This document shows, one piece after another, positions 6,001 to 9,000 of a DNA stretch of 64,000 bases. The position numbers were made by a program. This stretch comes from a virus. Taxonomy: Duplodnaviria > Heunggongvirae > Uroviricota > Caudoviricetes. The DNA lies in the IMG/VR virus record IMGVR_UViG_2877982868_000014, one strand, 5' to 3'. How positions within the stretch are numbered: position 1 is the stretch's first letter; each line of letters starts with the position of its first letter.

Positions 6001-9000
6001 TACGGCACTGGCGGTAAAACACATTGCGCATTGATCCGCTTTTTAATCCTAACTCCCTTTCCAGTTCAGGGAGGTCTGTGCCTTTGTTTTCAAGGGCTGC
6101 ATATACCGCTTTAGCAGACCAGTCACACCCCTCTCGAACAAACAAATTATTCGATGCTTGTCTGGATACCCTCATTGTGTGATCCTCTCATGTTTACCTG
6201 AACCGATAATCAAAACCGGTTATCGATTTAGGTAAATCATAATCGCAAAATAATTCGATATCAACGGTTTTTTGCGAGCATATCGAAATTAAATGCGATG
6301 TCGATAATTTCTTTGTTTTATAGGGGGTTATATGGATAAGGCAGAAAAAACCGTATCCAGTGCGGAACGGTTTATTGATATGGAAGGAATAAACCGATTT
6401 TCAGAACGCTTAGCTATGGCTATGGGAAACATGACAAACGTCGAACTGGCGACCCTTTGTGGACTATCTGAAGCCACAGTAAGAAATTACAGGAAGGGGA
6501 AAAACTTCCCTCCTTTGGATAAACTGGCCTTAATAGCTAAAGCCTGTAATTGTTCACTCGAATGGTTGGCCACAGGCAAGAACGAAGATGAATGCGGAAA
6601 AATCGAAAACAATTGCGATTCAGGTTCGGGTATTGATCAGGCGCTTAGCTCTCTAAGCCCCCAAGAGAAGCAATTAATCCTTACATTCATCAGGCGAGAA
6701 GGTACTAATAACCTTGTCAGGCTGGCAGCAATGAATACATCTACAATCAGCCAGGATGCGGTAGAAAGCATCATTGATGCCTTGCCATTACGTCCCGTAC
6801 TAAAAAATGCAATAAAGATAGGAATGGCGGGAAGTGAAGAAACAGACAAAGAGATTTTGCGCGTTATTGAGAAGTACAACTCGAGCAATAACGCCACCCA
6901 GGAATCAGGGGCAGTGACAGTAAAGAAAAATGTTGTTGGTTAAGCGCCATCGCTATCATGAGGTGGTGCTGTAAATACATATAGAGATCATATGACTCAT
7001 CCCAAGATAATCACGCTATTGAATAGTAATTCATGATGATTATCATACTGATTATAGTTAGATCGATTATGTGAGCATTTTGGCAGTTTGAAGATGTTTT
7101 GAAGATGTTTTGAAGAAGATTTTAAGGGTAAATTAGCAGTATCAAATGTGTCGCCGTTTTTTGATCTTTTGACTATTTGTTGAGCAGTCGGTATCAAAAA
7201 GAGTTTTCCGTCCGAAGTATACATCACCTGTTTTATTTCAGCATCTTACAGGTGATTTCACCTCCTTTCACTAAAACCCTTGTCGGTATCAAATGATTCA
7301 CCTGGTTACAGGCAATCCATGCCCCGGCGCTGGATCGCGGCGCGGCTCTTGGCGCACTGATGCGTCTGGAACATCCCAACGCTAGTGCCGAAGCGGCGCT
7401 GACGATGCTGGCGCAGTTATCCCCGGCACAATCCGGCGAAGCGCTGCACGGTTTGCTGGCGCTGGCCCGCCATCAACTGGCCTGTCAGCCGGCATTTATC
7501 GCCGGTTTCAGCAGTCATTTAAATCAACCAAGTGATGCCGATTTTATCAATGCCCTGCCCGATTTACGCGCGGCGATGGCCTGGCTACCGCCACGAGAAC
7601 GCGGGACACTGGCGCATCAGGTGCTTGAACATTATCAACTGGCGCAACTTCCCGTTTCGGCGCTGCAAATGCCGTTGCATTGCCCACCACAAGCCATTGC
7701 ACATCATCAACAACTCGAACAGCAGGCACTGGCATCGCTGCAAAACTGGGGAGTTTTCCATGTCTGAACTGAACGATCTTCTGACCACCCGTGAGCTACA
7801 ACGCTGGCGATTAATTCTTGGCGAAGCGGCAGAAACGACGCTTTGTGGGCTGGATGACAACGCCCGGCAGATAGACCACGCGCTGGAGTGGCTGTATGGG
7901 CGCGATCCTGAACGGCTCCAGCGTGGTGAACGCTCCGGTGGATTAGGTGGCTCAAATCTCACCACCCCTGAGTGGATCAACAGTATTCACACGCTGTTTC
8001 CGCAACAGGTGATTGAGCGGCTGGAAAGCGATGCCGTACTGCGCTACGGCATTGAAGATGTGGTGACGAATCTCGACGTGCTGGAACGTATGCAGCCTTC
8101 TGAAAGCCTGCTACGCGCCGTTTTGCACACCAAACATCTGATGAACCCCGAAGTACTGGCTGCCGCCCGCCGGATAGTGCGCCAGGTTGTTGAAGAAATT
8201 ATGGCTCGACTGGCAAAGGAAGTTCGTCAGGCTTTTTCTGGTGTCCGCGATCGCCGTCGCCGCTCATCTATTCCACTGGCGCGAGACTTTGATTTCAAAA
8301 GTACTCTTCGCGCCAATCTGCAACACTGGCACCCGCAACACGGCAAGTTGTATATCGAATCCCCCCGCTTTAACAGCCGAATTAAGCGCCACAGTGAACA
8401 ATGGCAACTGGTCTTACTGGTTGATCTAAGCGGATCGATGGTCGATTCGGTGATCCACTCTGCGGTAATGGCGGCCTGTTTGTGGCAGTTACCCGGCATT
8501 CGTACCCATCTGGTGGCGTTTGACACCAGTGTCGTTGATCTCACGGCAGACGTTGCCGATCCGGTAGAGTTATTAATGAAAGTACAGTTGGGCGGCGGGA
8601 CCAATATCGCCAGTGCCGTGGAGTATGGGCGGCAACTTATTGAACAACCAGCAAAAAGCGTCATTATCCTCGTGAGTGATTTTTATGAAGGGGGTTCATC
8701 ATCATTGCTGACGCATCAGGTGAAAAAGTGTGTCCAGAGCGGCATCAAAGTGCTGGGGCTGGCAGCGCTCGACAGCACCGCAACGCCTTGCTATGACCGC
8801 GATATGGCCCAGGCGCTGGTTAATGTTGGCGCACAAATAGCCGCAATGACACCGGGTGAACTGGCTACCTGGCTTGCGGAGAATTTGCAGTCATGAATTC
8901 ACTACGTCCGGAATTATTAGAACTCACGCCGCAGGCCCTGACGGCGTTAAGCAATGCCGGTTTTGTTAAGCGCAGCCTTAAGGAACTGGAAAATGGCAAC

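Follow-up and report, generated by a model that had tools for sequence, protein, structure and literature searches.

The window analysed here is the whole of a 64,000-nucleotide stretch of DNA from a virus of the Caudoviricetes (IMG/VR record IMGVR_UViG_2877982868_000014). On sequence comparison its positions 1-7310, read on the minus strand, belong to a Mu-like transposable prophage of the type represented by Sp18 of Escherichia coli O157:H7 Sakai, of which they form the early region, and this prophage ends inside the gene yehM. The early genes recognised in it are these.

6332-6943, plus strand: repressor gene of the CI / HTH_3 type (Pfam), with no relation to Mu c
5909-6175, minus strand: Ner-like early regulator, HTH_35 (Pfam)
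3808-5898, minus strand: transposase of 696 amino acids, with a Mu N-terminal DNA-binding domain, an integrase-like DDE core and Mu-transpos_C
2804-3736, minus strand: MuB-like AAA+ transposition ATPase, 48% identical to Mu B
921-1451, minus strand: Gam-like host-nuclease inhibitor (Pfam)

Read inward from the left end, the gene order is repressor, ner, A, B and, further on, gam, as is found broadly among Mu-like phages. The Pfam matches include Mu-transpos_C (E = 1.5e-17), HTH_Tnp_Mu_1 (4e-5), Phage-MuB_C (2.5e-25) and Phage_Mu_Gam (1.5e-41), and HTH_35 was also matched. All of the early open reading frames (ORFs) are intact; the RefSeq copies of the transposase use an alternative start that gives a protein of 680 amino acids. 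An additional ORF of 76 amino acids (6997-7227, minus strand) was considered spurious, having no Pfam match and no annotation in any of the RefSeq copies that were checked.

The element, well known from Shiga-toxin E. coli, is here at a new insertion site. Positions 1-7310 are colinear with prophages of O157:H7, O111:H11 and other E. coli, with 99.9% identity over the full length, and the element is carried by 248 of 5426 complete genomes, at differing sites. We refer to these copies as siblings. Near-identical copies were found in siiEA, upstream of gabP, in etk, ydeE and melA, in phage genes and elsewhere, and this multiplicity of unrelated chromosomal sites implies that integration occurs by transposition and not at a single att site. 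The complete siblings, with which all 7310 nt are colinear, are about 38.8 kb long and contain a whole Mu-like late region in which com and mom come last. In the head-gene region of Sp18-type prophages RefSeq places a feature named 'tRNA-OTHER' (26273-26352 of one sibling locus, and the same place in three more).

In the reading that we favour, and in which we have considerable confidence, the segment 7087-7310 is the attL of an Sp18-type Mu-like prophage that transposed into yehM of E. coli O157:H7, and the boxes of the form TTTGATAC(C/T)G within this segment are the likeliest docking sites for the transposase. The features on which this reading turns are as follows.

7307-7310, minus strand: prophage left terminus, 5'-TGTA..., with a transferred strand that ends ...TTACA-3' at 7310
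7282-7303, minus strand: proposed end-binding site L1, 22 bp, AGGTGAATCATTTGATACCGAC, with its TTTGATAC core at 7286-7293, 18 nt from the terminus
7187-7208, minus strand: L2, a proposed end-binding site, GAAAACTCTTTTTGATACCGAC, whose core (7191-7198) lies 113 nt inside the terminus
7135-7156, minus strand: L3, a proposed end-binding site, CGGCGACACATTTGATACTGCT, whose core (7139-7146) lies 165 nt inside the terminus
7311-7767, plus strand: 3' part of yehM (nt 1824-2280 of 2280), 457 nt, 100% identical to O157:H7
7311-7314, plus strand: predicted copy, GGCA, of a 4-bp target duplication, based on 10 of 11 related insertions and an empty-site test, with the second copy expected at the right-end junction

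The terminus can be placed to the base. When a query spanning the junction was used, sibling prophages at more than 10 other insertion sites matched up to 7310 (plus 0-4 chance bases) and yehM of other genomes matched from 7311 onward; none of the 5426 complete genomes covered both the prophage and the yehM side, the yehM insertion site being unseen among them. The minus strand from 7310 reads 5'-TGTAACCAGGTGAATC (in a longer read, 5'-TGTAACCAGGTGAATCATTTGATACCGAC), starting TGTAACC, and the base adjoining TGTAACC varies across nine sibling copies. Sakai Sp18 has an identical left terminus. Because the homology among siblings ends at 7310 and the flanks beyond this point differ, the terminus lies exactly at 7310. 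An original prediction, made from the window sequence by itself, had ended the prophage with 5'-TGTAA on the minus strand at 7306-7310, and this is where the homology to the siblings stops. The same prediction had likened the end to the start of the left end of Mu; this is true of TGTA and extends no further, the binding word being unrelated to the Mu att consensus. A promoter and terminator scan gave no signal above shuffled expectation, and a search of Rfam over 6000-7800 recovered no RNA family.

Inspection of the 175 nt inside the terminus reveals a repeated word. GTCGGTATCAAA is present exactly at 7187-7198 and 7282-7293 and as a variant, GCAGTATCAAA, at 7136-7146, so that the core spacings are 95 and 52 bp. 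The three repeats had been predicted at these positions and proposed as candidate transposase sites laid out like L1-L3 of Mu, and both the positions and the likeness hold up, with spacings of 95/52 nt here and 105/40 nt in Mu. Short (8-12 nt) and located in AT-rich sequence, these repeats might be suspected of being chance similarities in non-coding DNA. However, the word TTTGATACYG has 4 matches in the window where 0.19 are expected from shuffled sequences, with 3 of the 4 falling within 175 nt of 7310, and TTTGATAC has 8 copies in a 39.3-kb sibling locus where 0.81 are expected; no shuffle attained the observed count. Counts so far above the shuffled expectation mean that the repeats are not due to chance, and together with the retention of their positions in diverged relatives they refute an explanation to which we would in any case give almost no credence.

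The other end of the element is available in the complete siblings. Read inward, their right end is TATAGCGCGGCGATTTTTTTGATACCGATTTGCATTTCATTTGATACCGCTG...TTATTTGATACTAAAT; it starts TATA, not TGTA, and the right terminus ends ...CGCTATA-3', with TA and not CA as its last bases. The sibling right ends are identical to that of Sp18. Three of the 8 copies of TTTGATAC lie at each end, mutually inverted and all pointing inward, with their starts 18, 113 and 165 nt from the left terminus and 18, 40 and 75 nt from the right one; the remaining two are internal. L1 is thus as far from its terminus as R1 is in the sibling copies, and this equal distance of 18 nt between the first box and the cut at both ends supports the assignment of the right terminus to ...CGCTATA-3'. 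A right end of the form ...TATACA with a 2-bp duplication was considered and rejected, as the 4-bp match to the left flank also holds in copies where TATA is followed by AC, CC, CG or TG. The arrangement of one word inverted at both ends is in keeping with Mu-like elements in the broad sense, and suggests that the word is bound by the transposase.

More divergent phages were compared with respect to these boxes. In Sp18 and in JNE082796, a Mu-like phage that lies within the Stx phage LC727881, identity at the left end is 97% over nt 1-90 and just 73% over nt 105-175, and the sequence is unrelated thereafter. Despite the 73%-identical flanks, TTTGATAC is unchanged in both phages at 18, 113 and 165 nt. 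A VL40-type relative, present in E. coli VL40 and Shigella SFBU1023, has a transposase that is 74% identical and is without TTTGATAC; in its place TTCAAGATA is found at 18, 89 and 141 nt from the left terminus and at 18, 40 and 75 nt from the right. A word that changes with the transposase while its positions stay is the pattern expected of transposase-binding sites, and from this comparison of sequences we infer that the transposase binds the boxes. The 8-mer TGATTCAC, common to this end and to Mu L1, was set aside as a coincidence, having the opposite orientation here and being absent from the VL40-type relative.

Several observations weigh against this role for the boxes. Two copies of TTTGATAC lie inside the phage. 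A Pfam search of the transposase yielded no MuA end-binding subdomain family at E<=1, its DDE core is weakly recognisable (rve, E=0.007), and an alignment with MuA gives 23% identity with 19% gaps; among proteins of solved structure, it matches retroviral integrase cores best in sequence. It might then be supposed that the boxes are bound by some other factor (the packaging machinery, the repressor or a host nucleoid protein) and that the transposase recognises a different terminal sequence, a supposition to which the missing subdomain lends itself, as does the presence of other repeated words at the left end, AGGTGA and a 9-bp inverted repeat within 7223-7256, that could be protein sites. Yet the boxes are inverted at both ends and equidistant from the cleavage points, as a transposase requires, and the box word varies with the type of transposase at fixed positions. 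In addition, the operator region (6176-6331) contains no TTTGATAC, and in Mu the packaging signals are found at the left end alone. Binding by a factor other than the transposase is for these reasons very unlikely in our judgement. The exact terminus, the many insertion sites, the three plus three inverted boxes with their conservation and co-variation, and the 4-bp duplication of the siblings described next are all computed from the sequences; the function of the boxes in this particular element would follow from them by comparison.

Transposition should leave a duplication of the target, and the original prediction had looked to one of 5 bp. This length was not borne out: a 5-bp duplication with canonical TG...CA ends failed in all four of the full siblings on which it was tried, and the siblings show 4 bp. 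With the right end set at ...CGCTATA-3', 8 of 9 siblings have an exact direct repeat of 4 bp on either side (CACC, CACG, CATA, ACTA, CCTT, CGTT, CCAG and TGCC). JNE082796 has CATC, annotated as a 4-bp duplication in GenBank LC727881, Sakai Sp18 has TAAA, and the VL40 relative has TTCA. A 4-bp duplication is therefore present in 10 of 11 insertions, taking the siblings together with JNE082796 and Sakai Sp18. An empty-site test was possible with melA, where the left flank, one copy of the 4 bp and the right flank reconstitute an intact gene, with 100% identity over 241 nt and no gap. On the side that adjoins the ...TATA right terminus, the duplications start with C in 7 of the 10 Sp18-type insertions and with CA in 4, and no mirror bias was seen at the left end of the same 10. 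A literature search found no paper on 4-bp duplication by Mu-like phages or on the ends of Sp18. In the Sakai genome (NC_002695.2) RefSeq gives 'prophage Sp18' as 5040971-5079729, while the termini and the TAAA duplication put the element at 5040970-5079724, and the RefSeq feature thus appears to be a few bases off.

In the copy under study, insertion took place after nt 1823 of the 2280-nt yehM, that is, in codon 608. The flank 7311-11311 is 100% identical to O157:H7 strains. Since the window begins inside the prophage, neither the right end nor the 5' part of yehM is present in it, and both were searched for; the 5' part should lie some 31.5 kb upstream of position 1. It had been proposed that yehM is reduced to a 3' fragment. 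The 3' 457 nt are indeed all that the window holds of the gene, and the apparent reduction is an effect of the window edge. At the right junction, ...CCGCGCTATA is predicted to be joined to yehM nt 1-1827, giving GACGCAGTCAGGCA followed directly by TATAGCGCGG on the plus strand (also GACGCAGTCAGGCA followed by TATAGCGCGGCG). The gene was dead before the prophage arrived: yehM of EDL933 (389-2668 in the EDL933 locus) bears a pseudogene annotation and is interrupted by a stop at codon 510, upstream of the insertion codon.

The right end of the window copy lies beyond the window, and its completeness and GGCA duplication are accordingly predictions, a circumstance that tells against the favoured reading, as does the one exceptional sibling. 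This is a full-length copy on the 167-kb plasmid p8479-1 (NZ_CP074995.1); the genes to either side of it, the ydhX region and yeaW, are unrelated, and the duplication is missing. The copy is evidently rearranged, which shows that rearrangement can befall such copies, and the arrangement suggests a phage-mediated rearrangement or recombination between two copies. By analogy, the window copy could be a stranded or rearranged fragment (one-ended, truncated or recombined) whose left end is a relic with no right end abutting the 5' part of yehM; the window holds just 7.3 kb of the element, and no complete genome in the collection has the yehM insertion. On the other hand, the colinearity and near-identity of all 7310 nt with the complete 38.8-kb siblings, the intact early ORFs and the finding of a simple insertion with a 4-bp duplication in 10 of 11 sibling cases make a relic of this kind unlikely.

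If the boxes serve the transposase, transposition of the Sp18-type prophage might proceed as follows. The product of 3808-5898 would dock at L1 (7282-7303), L2 (7187-7208) and L3 (7135-7156), and the three matching boxes of the right end would complete the set and allow a paired-end complex to assemble. This complex would nick the left end at 7310, after ...TTACA-3', and the right end after ...CTATA-3', and both 3' ends would then be joined to target DNA with a 4-bp stagger, the target being delivered by the adjacent MuB-like ATPase. The chemistry would presumably be that established for Mu.

Two other features lie within the left end.

7087-7126, plus strand: 11-bp tandem repeat of unit TTTGAAGATGT, with 2.7 exact copies at 7087-7116 and a degenerate copy to 7126
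7209-7281, minus strand: spacer between L1 and L2, specific to the left end, containing AGGTGA words and an inverted repeat of 9 bp without mismatches (7223-7231 / 7248-7256)

The tandem repeat had been noted as lying just inside the end. It is present, with 2 or 3 full units in siblings and corresponding length differences of +/-11 bp, and it is absent from Sp18 and JNE082796. Because homology with these two phages ends before the repeat is reached, it falls outside the conserved end module. No copy of the 11-bp unit was found in the operator region or in the rest of the phage, and the repeat is probably a spacer prone to slippage within the immunity module of this phage. The L1-L2 spacer has no counterpart at the right end. 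In Mu, a packaging signal and a bend induced by a host factor lie between L1 and L2, and by analogy the spacer is a candidate packaging or bending site. Words resembling TTCAAAAC occur some 190-225 nt from the left end in the tandem unit at 7087-7126, in Mu (CTTCAAAAAACGTTCAAAACCG) and in the VL40-type relative (CCGTTCAAAAACG); their positions in the comparison loci are about 203-225 and 390-405, and they may reflect chance in AT-rich DNA.

Beyond yehM, the ORFs of IS629/IS1203 (296 and 108 amino acids, minus strand) follow immediately after yehQ at 10937-12150, and the part of this region up to 11311 is 100% identical in O157:H7 genomes. A lambdoid prophage occupies 16500-64000 and adjoins btsS/btsR (yehU/yehT). 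It lies near what we take, from the K-12 gene order, to be the place of yehV/mlrA, and mlrA was not located here. The genes and ORFs identified in it are listed below.

17157-18476: tail fibre
19202-22726: J
25269-27923: tape measure
34496-35998: portal
38242-40131: protease-capsid fusion
52601-54547: NanS-p-like esterase ORF
55337-56293: ribosome-inactivating (Shiga-toxin A-like) ORF
61609-62547: replication protein O

The middle of this prophage (41741-47609) contains a D5-primase-like gene (41741-43555) and a tyrosine integrase (46371-47609), and their location within the prophage suggests either two tandem elements or a satellite-like insert.

These results have several implications. The transposase is about 23% identical to MuA, the stagger is 4 bp, the ends are asymmetric (...CA-3' at the left and ...TA-3' at the right) and the target appears to be biased toward C, often CA, next to the right end; on these grounds the Sp18-type phages may represent a mechanistic variant of Mu transposition, a proposition that we regard as evenly balanced. 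If it is correct, the left end in the window is one half of a new model substrate for learning how the geometry of the ends sets the length of the stagger. The mapped ends provide a ready substrate design for the study of a distant MuA relative. The L1-L3 and R1-R3 boxes, the exact termini and the 4-bp duplication together furnish a simple rule with which Sp18-type prophages can be delimited. The insertion is also a strain-specific mark of an active transposable phage in O157:H7; it is useful for typing or for tracing lineages and could give rise to rearrangements. Because a premature stop is already present in yehM of this lineage, the insertion probably has no phenotypic cost.

Comparison with Mu places this element in context. 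In the Mu genome, CGAAA cores, which we take to be those of L1, L2 and L3, are found at 22, 127 and 167 nt from the left end, and those that we assign to R1 and R2 at 22 and 44 nt from the right. In both phages there are three sites per end, and the terminal site is equidistant from the cut at the two ends. In both, R1 and R2 are 22 nt apart, and a long L1-L2 spacer is followed by a short L2-L3 gap (95 plus 52 nt here, 105 plus 40 nt in Mu), with L1-L3 spanning 147 nt here and 145 nt in Mu. The left end begins TGTA in each, the repressor gene reads toward the left end as does Mu c, and the MuB proteins are, as noted, 48% identical. In contrast, the box word shows no relation to the Mu consensus, and the duplication and the last bases of the right terminus also differ (4 bp in place of 5, and TA in place of CA). 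All six boxes here share one inward orientation, whereas R3 of Mu is inverted. The core of the transposase resembles retroviral integrases as much as MuA, and the CI / HTH_3 repressor has no similarity to Mu c. Thus, alignment with the ends of Mu, which the original prediction had called for, reveals a parallel layout in an element that is of the Sp18 type and not of the Mu/D108 type.

The same differences separate the window phage from Muvirus, the group that contains Mu, D108 and SfMu. Members of that group produce a 5-bp duplication and have 5'-TG...CA-3' termini, possess a close homologue of MuA that includes the end-binding subdomains together with att sites of the Mu consensus, and encode a repressor, c, with homology to the transposase N-terminal domain; none of these properties was found here. 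The VL40/SFBU1023 relatives share with the window phage the placement of boxes 18 nt from both termini, the right-end positions of 18, 40 and 75 nt, the L2-L3 gap of 52 nt, the 4-bp duplication, and com and mom at the right end. They differ in that both termini start TA (5'-TATGAC... and ...GCGCTTTA-3') and in that L1 and L2 are 71 nt apart, not 95.

The closest relationship is with Sp18 itself, which is reported to be an intact Mu-like phage that is packaged efficiently and does not circularise (PMC2669165), with relatives at strain-specific sites (PMC7430833, PMC10132054). The termini 5'-TGTAACCAGG...CCGCGCTATA-3' and the 99.9% identity to complete siblings mark the window phage as Sp18-type. 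Its ends are identical to those of Sp18 and JNE082796 (5'-TGTAACCAGGTGAATCATTTGATACC... at the left and ...CCGCGCTATA-3' at the right), and it has in common with them the Mu-like gene order, the varying insertion sites and the 4-bp duplication. Its left end ceases to resemble that of Sp18 beyond about nt 175, and it departs from both phages in its immunity region, which consists of a 203-amino-acid CI-type repressor and the 11-bp tandem repeat. With the termini of Sakai Sp18 and a different immunity region, the window phage is best described as an Sp18-type phage that carries another immunity module.

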